From: a virus
Lineage: Duplodnaviria > Caudoviricetes
Direction: 5' to 3' (one strand)
Length of the DNA: 64,000 nt
IMG/VR virus record: IMGVR_UViG_3300038679_000357
Location: 32,001-96,000 of that record
Each line of letters opens with the position of its first letter. Position 1 is the stretch's first letter. The notes under the pieces are model-generated. The model saw only the letters and a program-made list of their open reading frames with translations, was not told where the DNA came from and did not search any database. Position numbers and translations under genes: made by a program. Below are positions 1,322 through 34,118 of the stretch, in pieces.

Positions 1322-1466
1322 CCATAATCTCTCAAATTCATAGAGCCAATCTGCATGAAATTCAAGAACATAGAAAGATAAATCAAAAAATTATTCAACA
1401 GTTAAACAACCCTTTCGGGTATCGTTCCGTTTTTACGATCGGGCGTCCATTTGCCCACACTTCGGT

Positions 1467-1542
1467 TGGAGCCCGCGCCCGGAATTGGACCGGGGACCTT
1501 CAACTTACCAAGTTGACGCTCTACCAACTGAGCTACGTGGGC
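1467..1542 (-). tRNA. tRNA-Thr(GGT)
   Basis: Cloverleaf; anticodon arm TCAAC-TT-GGT-AA-GTTGA; CCA end; T-loop is the variant TCCAATT. Confidence 0.93.
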
Positions 1543-1554
1543 ATTAAAAAGAAT

Positions 1555-1721
1555 CCGACCGACCGGCGGGAGTCGAACCCGCAAATAATGCCCGCGTTGG
1601 ACTGCAGACATTTGGACGGTTTTTGCCATGATTCCAAACTACGCAGGATCGCCCTGCGCGGTCATTCCTTGTTAACGGCTTGACCTCGACCGTGTATGCC
1701 ATTTCCACCACGGTCAGTCGG
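1555..1721 (-). ncRNA. 167-nt tRNA-like RNA (D-arm and T-arm, 11-bp terminal stem, several internal hairpins, no CCA)
   Basis: CCGACTGACCG pairs with CGGTCGGTCGG; Leu/Ser-like D-arm TGGTGGAAATGGCATACAC; T-arm GCGGG-TTCGACT-CCCGC. Confidence 0.65.
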
Positions 1722-1734
1722 CTTCTTTGATTAT

Positions 1735-2391
1735 TTATTCCTTAGACAATTCGACGTTCCAGTACAATCTTGACAAGAACCTTTCCCACTGTTGTGGTAT
1801 TTGGATCGGAGCGATAATCTTCCGAGAGCGCCGACTGTTTCTAATTTCAGTTGAAGTTGGCACATACGGCTTTTTCATCAGCTTCATGCCAGCTTCGTCT
1901 GGGAGCATGTCCTTCTTCTTATCGTTGCAAGAAATACAGGAGAGGACGATGTTCGTCCATTCTGTACGTCCGCCACGACACCTTGGAATGACGTGATCGA
2001 GATTCAAGGTCGTTTCTTCCTCGGTTGCGCCACAGTATTGACACTTATGGCGGTCTCGAATAAAAAGATTTATCCTTGAGAATCTCGCTGGGAGTTTGCC
2101 ATTCTTGCCGTCCAACCGACTACAGGTTGAGGCATGGTTGTAATAACGAAGAGCGATAACATGCGGGACTGGCAGTTCTCCAGAAGCGAGTTTAATCACT
2201 TCCTTTTCAGAGGCAATGCAAAGATCCTTTGCAGCCTGCCAATCTCCGAGCCACTCATCGAACGACCTTGCCTGGTCGTATTCATCGATGACATCAGCTC
2301 TTTCATTATAGAGGAGTTGTACGGCTCTGTGTAGAGAAACGGAATAGACAGCCTGCCGCAAGGCGTCTAACACCAACACTGGATGTTTCAT
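1735..2391 (-). CDS. HNH endonuclease (McrA/COG1403-like, VLVL N-terminal type)
   Basis: RDRHKCQYCG...LDHVIPRCRGGRTEWTNIVLSCISCNDKK. Confidence 0.92.
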   Translation of the reverse strand: MKHPVLVLDALRQAVYSVSLHRAVQLLYNERADVIDEYDQARSFDEWLGDWQAAKDLCIASEKEVIKLASGELPVPHVIALRYYNHASTCSRLDGKNGKLPARFSRINLFIRDRHKCQYCGATEEETTLNLDHVIPRCRGGRTEWTNIVLSCISCNDKKKDMLPDEAGMKLMKKPYVPTSTEIRNSRRSRKIIAPIQIPQQWERFLSRLYWNVELSKE

Positions 2392-2455
2392 GGCATGTCC
2401 TTTTTCGTTGTTTCCCTACTCCGTTATTCAACGGGAGATAGGCGGTTTCTTGTTT

Positions 2456-2544
2456 TGGTGGGTGCTGAAGGAGTTGAACCTTCCGCCCGCCGCCGCACAT
2501 ATTAAAGGCGCGGGTTTTACAGACCCGCGTGTGGAACAGCACCC
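2456..2544 (-). tRNA. Atypical D-armless tRNA-Tyr(GTA)-like gene
   Basis: Acceptor GGGTGCT/AGCACCC-A-CCA; 6-bp anticodon stem GCGGGT-CT-GTA-AA-ACCCGC; T-arm GAAGG-TTCAACT-CCTTC; only 9 nt where the D-arm should be; 26-nt variable region. Confidence 0.7.
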
Positions 2545-3020
2545 ATTTTTCTTCCAGGGCAATAAGTTTCAGTCTGAGAGTGACAATTAGGGCATAAGAT
2601 GCGTAAATTTTGCATTCTATTATCGCGTGAATCTCCATTTATATGGTCTAAATGCAAAACCAACTTTTTTCCCCTCCACATTGGTAGTAACCCACATTCG
2701 CTACACTCATTCTTCAGAATGTCCAATTTGAATAGCTTGTGCTTCAAATTATGAGACGTCCATCCGGGACCATCCTTTACAAGAACATCTTTTATGAATT
2801 GTTCCTTGGAACGACAACCCTTCAGGGCACTAGCTCGATTGCGCTCTGATATGTCGAAATGGGAAGTGTTTATTCCATAAGATAGAACCTTTTTGCGAAA
2901 AATCTCATAATTACTCCCTCTCGGAATAAGACCCATGGATCGCATCGCTTCAGATATTGAATTGCTTTTAGAAATTGCTTCTGCAATTTCTTCCCTACTG
3001 TATGGAGCTTTTCTTGGCAT
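2517..3020 (-). CDS. HNH homing endonuclease with N-terminal helical domain
   Basis: LHLDHINGDSRDNRMQNLRILCPNCHSQT. ATG at 3020 follows GGAAGGTG; the longer ORF call starts inside a tRNA. Stop codon lies in the anticodon loop of the Tyr-like tRNA. Confidence 0.9.
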   Translation of the reverse strand: MPRKAPYSREEIAEAISKSNSISEAMRSMGLIPRGSNYEIFRKKVLSYGINTSHFDISERNRASALKGCRSKEQFIKDVLVKDGPGWTSHNLKHKLFKLDILKNECSECGLLPMWRGKKLVLHLDHINGDSRDNRMQNLRILCPNCHSQTETYCPGRKMGAVPHAGL

Positions 3021-3034
3021 AAACACCTTCCTTC

Positions 3035-3111
3035 TGGTATCCCGAGTGGGACTCGAACCCACACCATTGGGAGCTTAAATCCCATGCATCTGCCAATTGT
3101 GCTACCGGGAC
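3035..3111 (-). tRNA. tRNA-Leu(TAA) with short variable loop
   Basis: 77 nt; anticodon arm TGGGA-TT-TAA-GC-TCCCA; variable loop ATGGT; CCA. Confidence 0.88.
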
Positions 3112-3234: not shown

Positions 3235-3311
3235 TGGTACCGCAGGGGGGACTCGAACCCCCAACATTCAGATTTTGAATCTGACGCGACTGCCAATTGC
3301 ACCACTGCGGC
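3235..3311 (-). tRNA. tRNA-Leu(CAA) with short variable loop
   Basis: 77 nt; anticodon arm TCAGA-TT-CAA-AA-TCTGA; variable loop ATGTT; CCA. Confidence 0.9.
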
Positions 3312-4515: not shown

Positions 4516-4759
4516 TTAAAGCTTCCTGGAATTTTTCCTACTTCACCAGGTACTCAAAAGATCGGAGCCGTCTACCGTAAGTGGTAGATAACCGAACACG
4601 AATAACCCAACATGGGCTGCTCGTGCGGCGGGCTTTTGTTCTTTTGTGGTGATAATCATTTTCGGACATTCCTTAGTTGCGGCTGCATGCCGCGTTGTTT
4701 TCTGAAAACAATATAGGCTCGATAAACGACATTATCAACCTCTACTGCAAAAAAAACTT

Positions 4760-6091
4760 TTAACTCACTGATCGAGCAAAGTTAATCGCCGCCTGACGAG
4801 CTTCCTGCAGTGTCTCGATTGGCTTCTTGCCGCATTTCCTATATGGAACGGAACTATCAGTGCAAGTTCCTTCTTCATAGAGCATATCACCGAGCTTGAA
4901 CCCGCAGATTGCCCAATGACTCCATCCATACCATTTTTTATCTTTTGTGCTATATCCGATTGAGCACACGGAATGATCAGGAGATGCTTTTTCTGGTCGA
5001 ATTCCTTTCGTGGTGCAAATGAAGTGTGCTTCCTTAGAATTTCCGATGAAATCTCCAGATGGATTATAAGCCATCCTTTCCATAACTATATCTTCGCCAT
5101 CGAGCGTCCAAACTTCATCCCGAAGAATATATCCAGATCGATAGCGACGCTCACGAATAACCTTTTTCGTTTCAACGCCACTAGCAATTTTCAAAAGTGG
5201 AATCGAATCTACACAGGCAGCGACAATGCTTACGGCGTCATCATCGCGTTCTGGAATATCGATCTCCCCCTCCTCATCAACGTCAATGTCAACAATATTT
5301 ACCTCGTTGTCGTTCGCCTGAACAGTTATCTCAACTGCTTCCGAGGTGACATAGTTCAACGCGATATACTTAACGTTCTTCTTGGATGAGCCCCAGGCAA
5401 ATATTTCAGTGGAAGCATCCCACATTCTGGATGCAAGCTGAGTAGATAGCTCTGCTGCCGCGCAAGAAGGATTTTCCATAGCGACAGGCATTACATCGAG
5501 AAACATTGGTTTCATCGCCTCAACTGCGGCAGCCAATCCGTCGAAATGTCCACGCGGAAGGGCGCATGCTTTTTTGATACCTGTAGGCATTGCTCCCATG
5601 GAAGGCAGTGAATAGAACTCTTTAATGACCCGGACAATGGAGTATTTATTGAGAGAATCTTGATGTAGTTTGATCGCTCCACCGTCTCTTACGGTCAAAG
5701 ATGCAGACATGTTCCCGTTACCAACACATCTTTGCAGGGTCATAAGTTGATCAACTGTTGGTTCTTTTCCGATCTCCACATACACATCGCCACCGACAAT
5801 AGAGAAGCGGATGCCGCCATCGCGTTCAAACATCAGTATGGCTTCATACTTTTCCAAGTATCCGTCCGTATCATACGCTTGAGCAATGGAGCCATGATCG
5901 ATATCGCGATGATACCCGCTTTCAGATCCATTGAGCATTTTTCCATCTGGAATAATCCAGATGGCCATTGATGGGTCATTCGTTACGCCGAAAAGATCCT
6001 TAGCCCTCGTCATGACATCGCCAGTAGAAATGGGTAATTCATCAGTCGGAGTGTCTTCCTGATTTTGTCCAAATTTATCAAACCAAGTCAT
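4760..6091 (-). CDS. Multi-domain hypothetical phage protein
   Basis: 443-aa ORF with SD GGAG; N-terminal WIIPDG...R-DIDH and C-terminal CSIGYS...KWYGWSHWA motifs resemble recurrent large-phage hypothetical domains (from memory). Confidence 0.75.
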   Translation of the reverse strand: MTWFDKFGQNQEDTPTDELPISTGDVMTRAKDLFGVTNDPSMAIWIIPDGKMLNGSESGYHRDIDHGSIAQAYDTDGYLEKYEAILMFERDGGIRFSIVGGDVYVEIGKEPTVDQLMTLQRCVGNGNMSASLTVRDGGAIKLHQDSLNKYSIVRVIKEFYSLPSMGAMPTGIKKACALPRGHFDGLAAAVEAMKPMFLDVMPVAMENPSCAAAELSTQLASRMWDASTEIFAWGSSKKNVKYIALNYVTSEAVEITVQANDNEVNIVDIDVDEEGEIDIPERDDDAVSIVAACVDSIPLLKIASGVETKKVIRERRYRSGYILRDEVWTLDGEDIVMERMAYNPSGDFIGNSKEAHFICTTKGIRPEKASPDHSVCSIGYSTKDKKWYGWSHWAICGFKLGDMLYEEGTCTDSSVPYRKCGKKPIETLQEARQAAINFARSVS

Positions 6092-9373: not shown

Positions 9374-9553
9374 CTATTCGTGATAAAGTGGTTTCTTTTC
9401 TGGGAACAACTGCGTATCAATATAGGGAGATGGCTCACCGGGAATATATTTTGGAGCGTCCTCTTTCATATCTCGTATGCGTTTCTTCGACTCTTCTAAT
9501 TTCCGAAAAACTTTCATACCTGGAGTTTCTTCTAATTTTTCTTTTCCGCTCAT
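9374..9553 (-). CDS. Small hypothetical protein (59 aa), absent from the ORF track
   Basis: MSGKEKLEETPGMKVFRKLEESKKRIRDMKEDAPKYIPGEPSPYIDTQLFPEKKPLYHE; stop is 3 nt before the next ATG; promoter-motif variant at 9604-9614. Confidence 0.65.
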   Translation of the reverse strand: MSGKEKLEETPGMKVFRKLEESKKRIRDMKEDAPKYIPGEPSPYIDTQLFPEKKPLYHE

Positions 9554-9606
9554 AACGTCGCACTCGCTTTCTAATTAAACATTGGAGCATCTTTTATAGT
9601 TCAATT

Positions 9607-10218
9607 TTACAACGCGACGAACCTTTCACTCAAAAATTTGGACACTCCTGCAGAATTCATTAAATAAAGATTGACGGCATGAATTCCACAGACAACCTCT
9701 GAAGTCAATCTTGGCTGCCGAATAACGTGCGTTCTTGGCTCAACATCCGCATATCGAATCGCCTCCCCATATAGAGACTGCGGCTCTGATCCTACGAGAT
9801 GTAAAATTCGACTGGACGTACAAAAATAACCAGAGATCAGAGCGTTCGTTACAGTATCCACAACATCTTTAGACACTGGATACCATTCTGACTCAGGAAG
9901 TGACTCTCCATCAATAACTCTTTGTACCGCTAAGGCGAACTCCTCAACTAATGAATGAACTCTCACAACAACCCCCTTACCATAGCGAAGAACATTTTTT
10001 TCCATAACGGAGAGAGTCTTTGACGCCATTGAGATAGGATTTACCTTGGATGACTCACTATGCATCCCGCCAACGCCAAAAACAATTGATTTAGACACAT
10101 AGAAAAAGTAATCATCAGCCGCCATTGCGGCTGTAAGAGAAAGCGACGGAAGCGAAATATTCCTTTCGATAAGGAGTGACTCGCTTCCGTCGGCAGACGT
10201 GTTGCAATAGGTAAACAA
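9607..10218 (-). CDS. Hypothetical protein
   Basis: 203-aa ORF in the co-oriented gene run; start uncertain. Confidence 0.6.
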   Translation of the reverse strand: MFTYCNTSADGSESLLIERNISLPSLSLTAAMAADDYFFYVSKSIVFGVGGMHSESSKVNPISMASKTLSVMEKNVLRYGKGVVVRVHSLVEEFALAVQRVIDGESLPESEWYPVSKDVVDTVTNALISGYFCTSSRILHLVGSEPQSLYGEAIRYADVEPRTHVIRQPRLTSEVVCGIHAVNLYLMNSAGVSKFLSERFVAL

Positions 10219-30224: not shown

Positions 30225-31061
30225 CTAAAACAATGTCTTAGCCGATCCAGATTCATCGCCCTCGTCGTCATCAAGAGCTTTTCCATATTCACTCTCGGTG
30301 GCATGATCAGTTGTTTCCTCATCAAACTTCACGCCACCAGTTGTGCTGGTGCTTGCTCCGGAAGAGGAGGTGCCGTTAGCGGCAGCGACTCGGCTTGCCT
30401 TACGTGCCTTATACCAATCTCCAGAGCCAGGAATAATCTTGCTCTCAGGATCTTTAAGGTAAGCTTCGTAAAGTTCGGCGATCTCTTCGGGAGACTTCGG
30501 CTGACGAAGAACGCTGAGTGGGTTCTCCTGAATAAACTTTTCAACCCTTTCCCTTTCTTCCTTGGTCAAAGGAGTAACTTCGGCGGGAAGAAGAGTATAG
30601 CGCGTTTGCAGTTTGCCAGCTTCGCCCTTCGTAACTTTACACTGAAGAACCCAGTCGCACCCATTATCATAATCACGGGGCATCGTTCCGCCATGCATTT
30701 CCATCCACGTCATCATAGTGTCGAGATGAGTCTTGTTAAAATCCCAGGCATTGAGAATGCCATCAGCACGGTTGATAACATAGACGGTATACGATTTCTT
30801 TGGCTTGAATCCACCTTCGCGCCAGCAGATATCATTGTCCTTTCCGGGGCTGATTGCTTGAATCGGCGAGAAATAACGCCAGAATTCAATCATTTTGGAG
30901 ACAATCCGGAAACGAACAGACTGATTTTGAGCTGGCTTGATATATGGGACGCTCAAGAAGCGCCTACCGCCTTCACCGGCGTCACGCTTCTTTTGGCGAT
31001 CAACAACAACATCCCAGTCAACCTCTCCTCCGATCGGAGGACGCTTTGCAGTATCTGACAT
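30225..31061 (-). CDS. Phage ssDNA-binding protein (gp32-like)
   Basis: Aromatic-rich core (FRIV, FWRYF, YTVYVINR, G.D..L...VTK...TRY); acidic tail ending in LF; adjacent to recA. Confidence 0.65.
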   Translation of the reverse strand: MSDTAKRPPIGGEVDWDVVVDRQKKRDAGEGGRRFLSVPYIKPAQNQSVRFRIVSKMIEFWRYFSPIQAISPGKDNDICWREGGFKPKKSYTVYVINRADGILNAWDFNKTHLDTMMTWMEMHGGTMPRDYDNGCDWVLQCKVTKGEAGKLQTRYTLLPAEVTPLTKEERERVEKFIQENPLSVLRQPKSPEEIAELYEAYLKDPESKIIPGSGDWYKARKASRVAAANGTSSSGASTSTTGGVKFDEETTDHATESEYGKALDDDEGDESGSAKTLF

Positions 31062-32282: not shown

Positions 32283-34118
32283 TCACAAACCTAAAAGATC
32301 TGTAATGGACGGCGCTCCATCATATCCACTTTCATCAACTTTTGAGGCTTTTTTCTCTTTCTTAAATGCAAGGAGATACGCCACCATTTCATCTCGCGAC
32401 ATATCAAATATTTTCATCGCGCCTCCATCACTCAATAACTCAATGATTTTCTTGGAGACCTTACTGTTTTTTGTCAAAAATTCTCTAAAATCAGCATATG
32501 GCTGATTGTCTATTACCTGCCTTACGGCGATGTCTCCGACGCCTTTTAGGAAAGTTAATGGAGTACGAATTGCGCGACCTTCGATCGTGAATATTTCCTT
32601 ACTATGATTGATATCCGGAGCAAGAAGGGGGATTTTTAACACGGTACTCGTTTCAATCATATACCTTTCTAAACTTTTATCACCAATATTGGCAGACATA
32701 AGAGCACACATATACTCAATCGTGTAGTATCTCTTCAAGTAGGCGGTTTGATAAACAAGAAACGCATAACATGCAGCATGTGAGCGGTTAAACCCATAAC
32801 CACCAAACATTTCTATCTTGTTCCAGGTGTCTAGGGCAACGCTCTCTAAAATTCCATTTGACAAACAGCCAGAAACAAACTTCCCCTTCATTTCAGCCAT
32901 CAATTCCATATTCTTTTTACCGATAGCCTTACGTAATTTATCGGCTTCTGACGAGGTAAATCCCGCCATCGATTTCGATAAATTCATAATCTGTTCCTGA
33001 TATACGATCATACTATAAGTCGGACTCAGAACGGCTTTCATGCTGGGGTGAGCATATTCAATTTTCATCTTCCCCAATTTATAGTCGCAATAAAACTCAT
33101 TCACCTTCGCCCTCAATGGTCCTGGGCGGTAAATAGCGTTAGCAGCAACTATATCTTCAAAAGAATCGACATGCATTTGTTTAAGCAACTTCGTCATTCC
33201 GTAACTTTCAACCTGAAAAATACCGTTGGTAATACCGGCATTAAGCATTTTGAAAACTTCTGCGTCATTTGGTTCAAGAGCATCGATATCAAACTTAACG
33301 CCATGACGCTCTTCAATCATTTTCATTGTACGATCAACAACAGAAAGCATCTTTAACGCAAGAATATCAAACTTTAACAACCCGATATATTCAACTTCAT
33401 CCTTATCGAACTGAGAGCAAACAACTCCCTTAGACGCCCTCATCGGAGTTAATTCTTTGACTTTCTTATTACTAACAACAATACCTGCGGCATGAACACC
33501 GCCGCTTGATACCCGTCCTTCAATCTTCTTACACGCCCTTGCATACGCTGGATATTTCTTCATAATGGCAGAAAGCTCGGGAGACGCCTCAATAGCTTCT
33601 TCCAACGTAGCAGCCTTTGAATCTGCCATCTTCGCTATTGCATCAGACATCTCCATTGTGCCCTTGCCAGTTTTATTTCCGGCAATCCAATCATTTGCCA
33701 GATCCATCACCTTGGCAACATGTCTTAGCGCAGCGCGTGACTTCAATACATTGTACGTACCGATATTACACGTGTATTCAGCTCCATACGTCTGAATCAA
33801 GTAGTTATACACTTCATCGCGACGGAAATAATCAAAATCCATATCGACATCAGGAGGAGAGACACGAGCTGGAGCCATAGTTTCACTTGGGCGGAAATTG
33901 CCTATCGGCTTGGCTCCAGTCATTCCTGTCCAATACGCTATGTAGGAGTTACATTTATTTCGAGTACCCTTCTTCAACTTACCAGAAAGAAAGTCTTCAT
34001 ACGTTTTTACGAAGTTATCGTAAACTTTGGTGTCTCTCATCCTGCGTTCTTCAATCAAAAATACACTCTCATTGTACTCCGAATGACTTTCACACGCAGT
34101 CTTCAAATCCACGCTCAT
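32283..34118 (-). CDS. dnaE: DNA polymerase III alpha, C-terminal part (palm/fingers/HhH)
   Basis: SPPDVDMDF, GVHAAGIV, KFDILAL, GIFQ.ES, YRPGP, YQEQIM, YGFNRSHA..Y, PDINHS, KGVG; SD GGAGGT. Confidence 0.95.
   Translation of the reverse strand: MSVDLKTACESHSEYNESVFLIEERRMRDTKVYDNFVKTYEDFLSGKLKKGTRNKCNSYIAYWTGMTGAKPIGNFRPSETMAPARVSPPDVDMDFDYFRRDEVYNYLIQTYGAEYTCNIGTYNVLKSRAALRHVAKVMDLANDWIAGNKTGKGTMEMSDAIAKMADSKAATLEEAIEASPELSAIMKKYPAYARACKKIEGRVSSGGVHAAGIVVSNKKVKELTPMRASKGVVCSQFDKDEVEYIGLLKFDILALKMLSVVDRTMKMIEERHGVKFDIDALEPNDAEVFKMLNAGITNGIFQVESYGMTKLLKQMHVDSFEDIVAANAIYRPGPLRAKVNEFYCDYKLGKMKIEYAHPSMKAVLSPTYSMIVYQEQIMNLSKSMAGFTSSEADKLRKAIGKKNMELMAEMKGKFVSGCLSNGILESVALDTWNKIEMFGGYGFNRSHAACYAFLVYQTAYLKRYYTIEYMCALMSANIGDKSLERYMIETSTVLKIPLLAPDINHSKEIFTIEGRAIRTPLTFLKGVGDIAVRQVIDNQPYADFREFLTKNSKVSKKIIELLSDGGAMKIFDMSRDEMVAYLLAFKKEKKASKVDESGYDGAPSITDLLGL

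Follow-up and report, generated by a model that had tools for sequence, protein, structure and literature searches.

A knotted, tRNA-shaped RNA without anticodon loop or CCA end in the tRNA gene array of a groundwater phage

Introduction

The tRNA clusters of phages T4 and T5 have held unexplained small RNAs for decades, and two of these are called tRNA-like in the T5 record. A comparable puzzle is posed by the 64,000-nt stretch of DNA analysed here (the window), whose host replicon is a 255-kb groundwater phage: inside the tRNA gene array lies a tRNA-shaped RNA of about 170 bases, and the question is what such an RNA is and why it is kept among genuine tRNA genes. The initial annotation of the window, made from its sequence, had described this RNA as a tRNA mimic and as a candidate for an undescribed RNA system, possibly forming a pair with the HNH nuclease encoded beside it.

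Results

Locus and conservation

The order of genes at the locus is HNH gene, tRNA-shaped RNA and tRNA-Thr(GGU), and is the same in all three lineages that carry the RNA:

1735–2391, minus strand: HNH nuclease gene, 218 aa, with a putative PLMP-like N-terminal domain and an IscB/Cas9-type HNH domain (Pfam HNH_5 and HNH)
1549–1727, minus strand: whole tRNA-shaped RNA, outer part of the closing helix included (covariance model R1, 172.8 bits)
1467–1542, minus strand: tRNA-Thr(GGU), the conserved downstream neighbour of the tRNA-shaped RNA (ARAGORN)

The core of the RNA corresponds to window positions 1555–1721 of the minus strand, or 1549–1727 with the outer helix. In each of the three lineages the element starts 4–7 nt past the stop codon of the HNH gene (7 nt in the window copy), and in the window its CCGACUGACCG strand begins after 13 nt beyond that stop codon (1737–1735); the 13-nt spacing, as well as a Leu/Ser-type D arm and a perfect T arm, had been read correctly in the initial annotation. 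The minimum-energy fold of the RNA is −75 kcal/mol (z = −3.98), and 0 of 200 shuffled sequences were equally stable. The ARAGORN and Rfam scans that had been suggested for this locus recognised nothing at the element: ARAGORN made no tRNA call, a scan of 1400–3000 at E ≤ 10 matched it to no Rfam family, RF00005 (tRNA) included, and the RF00005 model did not match it when run genome-wide at E ≤ 1.

We found the same RNA in only two further uncultured phage lineages (L009:10665–10835 and L022:6312–6477, the latter equal to L010, L011 and L012), with R1 scores of 172.8 bits for the window, 197.2 for L009 and 195.2 for L022 and one strong copy per genome. Identity among lineages is 68–81% for the RNA, similar to that of the HNH gene (73–79%) and of tRNA-Thr (76–90%), and the RNA therefore drifts like its selected neighbours. 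Despite this drift, 97% of the alignment cells remain paired. Eight pairs of the nested structure are changed on both sides, against 0–1 in slid controls, and the observed value was attained by 0 of 500 shuffles. For pseudoknot X and hairpin Y together, described below, 7 of 16 pairs are changed on both sides, with at most 1 of 500 shuffles attaining the observed value on four of five measures and 9 of 500 on the further-pair-types measure; as three lineages amount effectively to two deep splits, a single event may underlie each covariation. The homologues thus show compensatory changes, where the initial annotation had allowed for decay without compensation. Scores of 173–197 bits on the minus strand, compared with 13–28 bits on the opposite strand, together with the G-U pairs, show that selection acts on the minus-strand RNA.

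Wider searches were negative. Neither megablast and blastn against 50,697 phage records nor a search of GTDB genomes returned a homologue of the RNA. Exact and degenerate motif scans of IMG/VR gave no match in one case and four in the other, the latter judged to be chance given their lack of tRNA-like context, and a motif scan of JGI metagenomes found no contig beyond the one already known. Comparison of the region with contigs of four groundwater or coal runs revealed neither new variants of the element nor any form from which the HNH gene is missing, and relatives sought via DnaE and Tad6 were either too distant or devoid of tRNA arrays.

A sealed acceptor end

The two ends of the RNA are joined in one long helix:

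1711–1727, minus strand: 5' strand of the closing helix, with outer AAGAA (1727–1723), G, then CCGACUGACCG (1721–1711); pairs with 1549–1565
1549–1565, minus strand: 3' strand of the closing helix, with CGGUCGGUCGG (1565–1555), A, then UUCUU (1553–1549), without CCA

The initial annotation had proposed an 11-bp terminal helix lacking CCA. This helix, formed by CCGACUGACCG and CGGUCGGUCGG with one G-U pair, was confirmed, but it does not end there, the outward extension AAGAA/UUCUU bringing it to about 17 bp in the window. Across the three lineages it measures 12–17 bp and its outer pairs covary, A-U against G-C. The L022 lineage shows a shifted register following a 4-nt deletion, with differences in the 5' strand through which 12 bp run uninterrupted in the new register; the acceptor/T stack therefore does not keep strict tRNA geometry.

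All 46 of the 46 called tRNAs of the phage genome encode CCA, which is absent from the tRNA-shaped RNA in three of three lineages, where the 3' end is base-paired. Both ends lie in the 12–17 bp helix in every lineage, and there is no free guide segment at either. An intrinsic terminator was ruled out, as the T run after the helix is missing from L009 and L022. The long closing helix may act as a processing stalk or protect the ends.

The tRNA elbow

Inside the closing helix, the RNA retains both arms that build a tRNA elbow:

1692–1708, minus strand: Leu-type (class II) D arm, GUG-GAAAUGGCAUA-CAC, with only two variable loop positions among orthologues
1566–1582, minus strand: T arm, GCGGG-UUCGACU-CCCGC, invariant apart from one loop position in L009

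The closing helix is followed by UG (U8-G9) and then by the 3-bp D stem GUG/CAC; an alternative D stem of 5 bp, CCGUG/CACGG, can be drawn across 1713–1690. The GAAAUGGCAUA loop agrees at 8 of 11 positions with what we take to be the D loop of E. coli tRNA-Leu, and within the phage the D arm best resembles those of the class II-type tRNAs Cys(gca) and Leu. The retained elbow features include GG in the D loop and UUCGA in the T loop.

A pseudoknotted domain in place of the anticodon loop

The region between the two arms contains the following elements:

1683–1687, minus strand: 5' strand of helix Pa, GAGGU, at the anticodon-stem position; pairs with 1620–1615, with covariation
1615–1620, minus strand: 3' strand of helix Pa, ACCGUC, pairing as ACC(G)UC with GAGGU
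1678–1684, minus strand: GUCAAGC, invariant in the orthologue alignment
1677–1679, minus strand: 5' strand of helix Pb, GCC, predicted by RNAalifold; partner GGC at 1627–1625
1641–1659, minus strand: hairpin Pc, GCGCAGG-GCGAU-CCUGCGU, conserved in position
1633–1637, minus strand: 5' strand of pseudoknot X, UUGGA; partner UCCAA within the hairpin Y loop
1587–1612, minus strand: hairpin Y, AAUGUCUGC-AGUCCAAC-GCGGGCAUU, at the variable-arm position, with the 3' strand of X in its loop (1601–1597)

Four hairpins had initially been drawn here. Two of them, GCGCAGG/CCUGCGU (Pc) and UGUCUGC/GCGGGCA (Y), are conserved, but GGUCA/UGACC and UUUGGA/UCCAAA occur in the window only, and the actual core is not a set of four hairpins but a long arm plus a pseudoknot. 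The pairing of the UCCAA loop with UUGGA, which the initial annotation had offered as an alternative, is real, and it is this pairing that is conserved, as pseudoknot X, which reads GUCCAC/GUGGAC in the relatives with 4 of 6 pairs changed on both sides. Helix Pa reads GCAGU/ACU(G)GC in the L022 lineage, two pairs being altered on both sides. In alignment A1, two pairs of hairpin Pc change on both sides; compared helix to helix, the L009 and L022 copies of Pc are one base pair longer than that of the window. Three pairs of hairpin Y are changed on both sides, and L011 has neither partner of one pair. The linker between the 3' strands of X and Y is 1 nt in the window copy, a tight fit sterically unless Y opens at its top. 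Helix Pb, drawn across an internal loop (CAA/AAAA), is a prediction whose pairs are invariant.

The GUCAAGC segment is probably the relic of a tRNA-Leu(CAA) anticodon loop (U33, CAA, G37), judging from its sequence. It is now divided among helix Pa, the internal loop (CAA) and helix Pb, and no stem closes it, its flanks pairing elsewhere, in helix Pa. GGUCAAG was at first read as a UCA or CAA anticodon loop, a reading that we abandoned because helix Pa has two compensatory pairs. The description of the RNA as tRNA-shaped and unable to decode therefore holds, given that it has neither a 7-nt anticodon loop nor CCA. In structural terms, Pa would be the equivalent of the anticodon stem and Y that of a long variable arm, with the anticodon loop expanded to a domain of about 60 nt comprising the internal loop, Pb, a junction and hairpin Pc; the 3' flank of this domain would pair with the Y loop, as pseudoknot X, and lock the two arms together. 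An HDV-like double pseudoknot was excluded by an unsuitable strand order, as was a ribozyme or riboswitch, nothing in Rfam matching at E ≤ 10.

A paralogue and the tRNA array

The closest paralogue of the RNA lies in the same genome (G000:30138–30259), between two tRNA-Glu genes and with no HNH gene there, and both this paralogue and its L022 copy are also without CCA. The array holds, in addition, several CCA-bearing oversized tRNA-shaped RNAs, so that the phage carries a small family made up of the RNA, its CCA-less paralogue and these larger forms. tRNA finders and Rfam-based annotation miss such RNAs, none of which matched an Rfam family here. A promoter and an attenuator are located near 4738–4486, and no terminator was seen between the array promoter and the element. 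The canonical tRNA set of the phage is complete except for tRNA-Tyr. A candidate Tyr(GUA) tRNA lies at 2457–2545. Aminoacyl-tRNA synthetases of the Leu/Ile/Val, Ser/Thr/Pro/His and Tyr/Trp families that could serve as a dedicated partner are not encoded by the phage; RtcB and the splicing endonuclease EndA were not found in the phage, and Ro60/TROVE (PF05731) is absent from its 255 kb.

Comparison with known RNAs

Phage T5 RNA1 (rna1, AY543070 30501–30644) and RNA2 (32959–33083) carry the annotation 'tRNA-like stable RNA with unknown functions' and, like the window RNA, sit in a phage tRNA region interspersed with HNH homing-endonuclease genes. RNA1 shares with the window RNA the closing helix, a Leu-type D arm (GAAUUGGUAGA), a canonical T arm, the lack of an encoded CCA, a long arm replacing the anticodon loop and a hairpin at the variable-arm position, and RNA2 likewise has a tRNA frame with a larger module for the anticodon loop and no CCA. 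However, R1 run on the T5 tRNA region picked up neither RNA, no sequence relationship links the inserts, and the window RNA has a longer closing helix (12–17 bp) and a larger insert, tied to the variable-arm hairpin by a covariation-supported pseudoknot. The T5 RNAs are recorded as stable RNAs; for the window RNA, whose DNA turned up in no RNA-seq run, expression, mature ends and stability are suggested by analogy with T5 and T4.

T4 RNAC and RNAD resemble the window RNA, as far as their description goes, in being small RNAs within a phage tRNA cluster, and we assume that they may bear tRNA-like features. These RNAs of the T4 tRNA region, whose biological roles are unexplained (PMC3014915), have been seen on northern blots (PMC9697503). 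The proposal of an undescribed RNA system is therefore unsupported, T5 RNA1/RNA2 and T4 RNAC/RNAD (PMC3014915) being the same kind of RNA.

The initial annotation had set the RNA apart from tmRNA and YrlA, and database and motif tests agree. YrlA, a bacterial and mycobacteriophage Y RNA (RF02553), is also non-decoding, with a tRNA-like elbow of D and T arms and a long helix (PMC4201824). However, its long Ro60-binding helix stands in the place of the anticodon stem, in a permuted module order, whereas that of the window RNA is at the acceptor position. The sole RF02553 match reached 28.1 bits, against a gathering threshold of 69, and spanned this T arm and the D arm of the next tRNA, and the GNCGAAN0-1G motif (PMC4201824) is replaced by GUCGAGG in the window and L009 and by GUCGCAG in L022. 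The tRNA-like domain of tmRNA shares the acceptor/T-arm stack and likewise has its anticodon arm replaced by a long helix with pseudoknots; the window RNA differs in its true D stem, the lack of CCA and of G3:U70, and about half the size. The ARAGORN tmRNA search and Rfam were negative for tmRNA, and no frame through the 3' half of the RNA, read by eye, meets a stop codon, so that no tag reading frame was seen. tRNA-Sec gave no match on the element.

Class II tRNA-Leu and the long-arm Cys(gca) tRNA of the phage share with the window RNA the U8-G9, a D arm of 3 bp with 11 nt in its loop, the GCGGG/CCCGC T arm and, ahead of it, a long hairpin; in addition, GUCAAGC resembles the Leu(CAA) anticodon loop. 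Unlike them, the window RNA lacks a 7-nt anticodon loop, a discriminator and CCA, it has about 60 nt inserted, and its acceptor end is sealed.

The neighbouring HNH protein

The best sequence matches of the HNH protein among solved structures were 4h9d and the HNH domains of IscB and Cas9. For a model of its N-terminal region (residues 1–90), the top nine VIA matches were all IscB or IsrB (chain residues ~1–56, Z 5.1–7.6), the next row having Z 3.2; the profile-to-sequence match to the PLMP domain of DtIsrB was not significant (E 0.18). Like IshB (PLMP + HNH, ~180 aa; IscB/IsrB OMEGA family), the protein would combine a PLMP-like domain with its HNH domain, without RuvC, but it lies outside an IS200/IS605 context and its PLMP motif is replaced, the family consensus being WQAV. 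This putative IshB-like nuclease beside the RNA is a lead in its own right. An R1 scan near seven loci with HNH relatives of 38–51% identity (L003–L005, L018–L021) found no RNA, about 210 nt downstream being covered at L018.

Discussion

Conserved helices with compensatory changes, together with the lack of an anticodon loop and of CCA, lead us to conclude that the tRNA-shaped RNA is a non-decoding tRNA derivative under selection, with a layout like that of T5 RNA1. We give an even chance to the fuller proposal that it is a stable, non-decoding RNA gene, descended from a class II (Leu-type) phage tRNA, that serves as a mimic of tRNA shape in trans. The RNA would be transcribed with the tRNA array from the promoter/attenuator near 4738–4486 and then cut from the precursor. 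Acting in trans, it could occupy a partner, protein or RNA, for which the elbow and body of a tRNA suffice for recognition and an anticodon or CCA is not needed; the partner could be a defence nuclease of the host that targets tRNAs, or an enzyme of tRNA processing or modification. Mimicry of tRNA shape is thus our best guess as to its function.

A rather unlikely alternative is that the element acts in cis, in the processing or stability of a polycistronic tRNA-HNH transcript, its body having no function in trans. The closing helix stacked on the T stem (~21–22 bp in total) could form an RNase III-type cleavage stalk, or the compact fold could shield the HNH mRNA from exonucleases at its 3' end. 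The start 4–7 nt past the HNH stop codon in three of three lineages, the 12–17 bp closing helix with its covarying outer pairs and the absence of a terminator between array promoter and element would suit such a role, as would the precedent of tRNA-like elements that define mRNA ends, namely MALAT1 mascRNA and plant mitochondrial t-elements. However, a plain hairpin would suffice, with no call for selected elbow nucleotides, a pseudoknot or helix Pa; the true tRNA (Thr) 12 nt downstream could set the ends alone; and the paralogue, closed by the same style of helix, is flanked by tRNA genes on both sides, where no mRNA needs protection. It is very improbable, in our view, that the RNA is a pseudo-tRNA in decay, insertions having destroyed a class II tRNA gene, perhaps as immunity to a homing endonuclease, and the remnant now drifting. 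The Leu-type relic (GUCAAGC), the lack of CCA, the register shift in one lineage and the strong divergence of the central part could be taken as signs of decay, but this divergence is mostly compensatory (8 nested pairs, three of them in hairpin Y, and 4 in pseudoknot X), L022 has a continuous 12-bp helix after its 4-nt deletion, and the elbow nucleotides are invariant. We consider it extremely improbable that the element is a decoding tRNA with an intron or some other peculiarity. When run at a lowered threshold and permitted to place introns, ARAGORN proposes a Cys(gca) tRNA with a 78-nt intron, and tRNA-Tyr is the only one missing from the canonical set. Yet two of the five pairs in the anticodon stem of this proposal are mismatched, neither L009 nor L022 preserves the stem, and removal of the insert leaves no loop with U33. 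No bulge-helix-bulge motif was seen (the CAA/AAAA loop is symmetric), nor any Rfam intron; to our knowledge the smallest group I introns measure about 200 nt, for which the insert is too short. Moreover, the phage has neither RtcB nor a splicing endonuclease, every tRNA of the genome encodes the CCA that is lacking here, and the Tyr(GUA) candidate is present elsewhere.

The initial annotation had also proposed a nuclease-RNA pair, in which the PLMP-HNH protein would bind the RNA as cofactor, scaffold or regulator, in the manner of IscB/IsrB with omega RNAs. The unchanged order and tight spacing of the two genes in all three lineages, the resemblance of the N-terminal domain to IscB/IsrB PLMP domains (Z 5.1–7.6, the next unrelated row at 3.2), the IscB/Cas9-type HNH domain and the contacts of the IsrB PLMP domain with omega-RNA hairpins (PMC9581776) speak for this proposal. 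However, the three lineages are syntenic relatives, so that the three-of-three co-occurrence counts as one observation; the RNA is sealed by a helix, with no free guide, and lies downstream of the HNH gene, whereas omega RNAs of IscB lie upstream; and HNH and other homing-endonuclease genes are dispersed through this array and that of T5. As more distant HNH relatives (38–51% identity) have no such RNA nearby and the paralogue has no HNH neighbour, the pair is unsupported, and we regard it as quite improbable. Its bolder form, a ribonucleoprotein in which the PLMP domain holds the sealed RNA and the tRNA-like body directs or licenses the nuclease to tRNA genes or tRNAs, is very improbable; if true, it would represent a relative of OMEGA systems that is directed by shape and has no guide, and it could drive homing in phage tRNA arrays or cleave competitor or host tRNA.

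Returning to the non-decoding tRNA derivative, the window RNA is a new, more ornate relative of the 'tRNA-like stable RNAs' of T5 and T4, and the locus extends this kind of RNA to uncultured huge phages. Selection keeps an elaborate, knotted replacement of the anticodon loop along with the tRNA elbow. The defined structure, with clear mutants in X, Y, Pa and the closing helix, allows a test of whether such RNAs serve as decoys against tRNA-directed defences or as cofactors of tRNA enzymes.

Genomic setting of the element

The window spans positions 32001-96000 of an IMG/VR virus record of 255 kb. The DNA of this phage occurs in groundwater metagenomes, and no cultured phage has a DnaE more than 36% identical to its own. 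ARAGORN called 46 tRNA genes in the phage genome, over a ~34-kb array, 45 of them on the minus strand and all 46 with an encoded 3' CCA; every amino acid is covered except tyrosine, for which no tRNA was called. HNH and other homing-endonuclease-like genes are scattered between the tRNAs. This part of the array is headed by two sites:

4738-4710 (-), promoter-like site
4515-4486 (-), terminator-like hairpin

The only further minus-strand terminator-like site that a terminator scan found ahead of the element, 2529-2509, was discounted because it is the anticodon stem of a Tyr-like tRNA. In that tRNA-Tyr(GUA)-like gene (2457-2545, minus strand), the sole Tyr candidate of the phage, a stem of 6-7 bp carries the anticodon loop CUGUAAA, and a T arm, discriminator A and CCA are present but the D arm is missing; ARAGORN does not call the gene, and it scores 31.8 bits with the tRNA-Sec model (threshold 47). 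An upstream HNH ORF (2517-3062) terminates within its anticodon loop, and tRNA-Tyr is normal (88-92 nt) in L009 and L022, contigs of related uncultured phages. The tRNA-Leu(uaa) and tRNA-Leu(caa) genes (3035-3111 and 3235-3311, minus strand) are just 77 nt each, with a class II-type D arm yet a 5-nt variable loop in place of the long variable arm. The only plus-strand tRNA is of suppressor type (whole-genome coordinates G000:18373-18447, anticodon CUA), and the 500-kb relative has one with anticodon UUA (L009:14759-14834). Also kept beside the array in related phages is a gene (4760-6091, minus strand) for a 443-aa protein, the C-terminal 130 residues of which match Pfam Tad6, a type I Thoeris inhibitor (E 4.9e-39).

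Structure and conservation of the element

The features of the element in the window are:

1735-2391 (-), HNH ORF, stop codon at 1737-1735
1721-1711 (-), CCGACUGACCG, 5' strand of the closing helix
1565-1555 (-), CGGUCGGUCGG, 3' strand of the closing helix
1727-1723 with 1553-1549 (-), outward extension of the helix, AAGAA with UUCUU
1582-1566 (-), canonical T arm, GCGGG-UUCGACU-CCCGC

As the initial annotation had read from the sequence, an 11-bp closing helix begins 13 nt past the HNH stop and encloses a D arm and the T arm, with no CCA at the 3' end. The helix also encloses UG, and the D arm, GUG-GAAAUGGCAUA-CAC, is of the class II (Leu) type. The predicted fold (-75 kcal/mol, z = -3.98) is far stabler than those of shuffled sequences. 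The ARAGORN and Rfam checks proposed in that annotation gave no call and no match at the gathering score or at E <= 10, and a genome-wide tRNA model search missed the element at E <= 1.

Direct DNA searches for homologues of the element in phage records, IMG/VR, JGI metagenomes and GTDB genomes yielded no new homologues, and relatives were reached instead via the HNH protein. One HNH relative (P0003, 81% identity) lies on the 500-kb contig L009 and another (P0002, 85% identity) at loci L010, L011 and L012 and on the longer L022; in all of these the gene order is HNH, element, tRNA-Thr(GGU), with 4-7 nt between stop codon and outer helix. R1, the covariance model built for the element, scored 173-197 bits on three orthologues, with a single strong copy per genome. 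Hardly any positions vary in the T arm or in the 5' block up to and including GUCAAGCCG, and the middle of the element is divergent.

Pairwise nucleotide identity at the locus
Element: 68-81%
HNH gene: 73-79%
tRNA-Thr: 76-90%

RNAalifold and pair counting over three lineages, effectively two deep splits, gave the closing helix, D arm, helices Pa and Pb, hairpins Pc and Y and the T arm. Of the cells, 97.2% are paired overall, and there are eight both-side pair changes, against 0-1 with slid partners, a count reached by 0 of 500 shuffles. In Pa, the L022 lineage has GCAGU/ACU(G)GC in place of GAGGU/ACC(G)UC (two compensatory pairs); Pb is GCC/GGC, across an internal loop CAA/AAAA. Hairpins GGUCA/UGACC and UUUGGA/UCCAAA, proposed in the initial annotation, are absent from the relatives, whereas the loop pairing with TTGGA that it had offered as an alternative proved to be the conserved one: the strand immediately 3' of Pc pairs with the Y loop (UUGGA/UCCAA in the window, GUCCAC/GUGGAC in both relatives), with 4 of 6 pairs changed on both sides. 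As this pairing, X, crosses Y, it is a pseudoknot, with a short linker in the window copy. Y itself shows three further both-side changes, and in L011 one of its pairs loses both partners. In the window the closing helix consists of 11 bp, a mismatch and 5 bp, and in L009 of 16 bp. The L022 lineage has lost 4 nt from the repeated 3' strand (CGGU CGGU CGG), which moves the pairing into a new register of 12 bp, with 5'-strand differences at sites that make the helix continuous in it. CCA is missing in all three lineages.

The opposite strand scores only 13-28 bits with R1 and this, together with the G-U pairs, shows that it is the minus-strand RNA that is under selection. The comparisons show a selected, strand-specific RNA, predicted to be compact with a tRNA elbow and to be unfit for aminoacylation or codon reading.

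Origin and related RNAs in the array

The 5' half and T arm are nearest to the class II-type tRNAs of the phage itself, Cys(gca, 86 nt) and Leu. The class II cloverleaf layout is kept, with Pa at the place of the anticodon stem and Y at that of the long variable arm, and a ~60-nt domain, tethered to the variable-arm loop, stands in for the anticodon loop. A T-arm scan found six more T arms in the array outside called tRNAs. Upstream of the window lie further tRNA-shaped RNAs that are oversized, have intact T arms and are not called by ARAGORN:

G000:9397-9637 (-)
G000:28944-29090 (-)
G000:30129-30260 (-)
G000:30812-30979 (-)

The top R1 paralogue (G000:30138-30259, 25 bits), flanked by two tRNA-Glu genes and kept in L022, shares the D arm of the element, is closed by a helix of 12 bp in which one pair is compensatory, and lacks CCA. 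The oversized RNAs at G000 ~9410-9520, 9529-9637 and 30821-30979 retain a 7-bp acceptor and CCA. Several of the upstream oversized RNAs are conserved in L022 (7299-7458, 7990-8097). The tRNA-Cys(gca) (G000:11535-11620, minus strand), of 86 nt, has a long variable arm, UGGAGAAAUCCA, a feature unusual for Cys. This sequence recurs as the Pc tip in the L009 and L022 copies of the element (L009:10726-10748, L022:6375-6397), which suggests exchange among array members.

T5 offers RNAs of the same kind. In its record, RNA1 and RNA2 bear the annotation "tRNA-like stable RNA with unknown functions" and have tRNAs and four HNH homing endonucleases around them. RNA1 folds, like the element, into a closing helix, Leu-type D arm, long arm, hairpin and T arm without CCA. 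Homology is not demonstrable, since R1 finds neither RNA in the T5 tRNA region. T4 also has small RNAs of unknown role from its tRNA region, RNAC and RNAD (PMC3014915, PMC9697503).

Alternative identities and the neighbouring HNH protein

The initial annotation had held the element to be non-decoding and neither tmRNA nor YrlA, and this was borne out. A decoding or odd tRNA is scarcely credible, given the lack of a 7-nt anticodon loop and of CCA, which every called tRNA of this genome encodes. GUCAAGC looks like what is left of a Leu(CAA) loop (U33, CAA, G37), its flanks being taken up by Pa and Pb. An intron-bearing tRNA spliced to a cloverleaf also fails: the relaxed ARAGORN call (Cys gca, 78-nt intron) has a stem with 3 of 5 pairs, which is not conserved. 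RtcB and splicing endonuclease were not found in the phage, and the insert is smaller than group I introns are known to be. An ARAGORN search of the phage for tmRNA was negative, as were YrlA model, motif and Ro60 searches; the lone YrlA match (28 bits, threshold 69) couples the T arm of the element with a D arm that belongs to the following tRNA and was dismissed as an artefact because it spans two adjacent genes. A decaying pseudogene is very improbable, as the changes are mostly compensatory.

The HNH gene product matches Pfam HNH_5 and HNH; among solved structures, its top sequence matches are 4h9d, a nicking HNH of Geobacter, and the HNH domains of IscB and Cas9. When a model of its N-terminus (residues 1-92, pLDDT 82) was compared by VIA-align, the nine best rows were all IscB/IsrB, over the first ~50 residues, which correspond to the N-terminal PLMP domain of these nucleases (Z 5.1-7.6; next row 3.2); a match to the PLMP sequence of DtIsrB in a profile comparison was in register but not significant. 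Because of this fold match and the IscB/Cas9-type HNH domain, the protein, which has no RuvC, looks similar to IshB, which is PLMP plus HNH (PMC10734217). Its family is large (290 matches in bacteria and phages, labelled McrA or HNH endonuclease). The 5' UTR of the gene (2392-2456, minus strand) has a small hairpin, CCGUU-GAAU-AACGG, upstream of an AAGGA ribosome-binding site, which is conserved in the window and L022 but not in L009.

A functional pair of HNH protein and element, as initially proposed, deserves mention, since the PLMP domain of IsrB makes contact with RNA (PMC9581776) and the HNH protein looks IshB-like. We nevertheless consider it improbable: the element has no free end for guide use, its paralogue lacks an HNH partner, and such arrays commonly hold free-standing endonuclease genes. 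Nor did co-occurrence extend to more distant members of the HNH family, R1 being negative near HNH relatives of 38-51% identity, and the evidence is against a general HNH-RNA coupling. That the element acts purely in cis, for processing or stability, is unlikely, though less so than the pair.

We consider it very probable, from comparative data, that the element is a functional tRNA derivative that does not decode, the same kind of RNA as T5 RNA1. It would be co-transcribed with the tRNA array and excised, with the closing helix as a stalk or to protect the ends, and could mimic tRNA shape toward a factor needing neither anticodon nor CCA. A decoy or mimic mechanism specifically is a tentative proposal, and we put even chances on the combined statement of such a derivative acting in this way. 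Candidate factors would be defence nucleases directed at tRNA and enzymes that process or modify tRNA.
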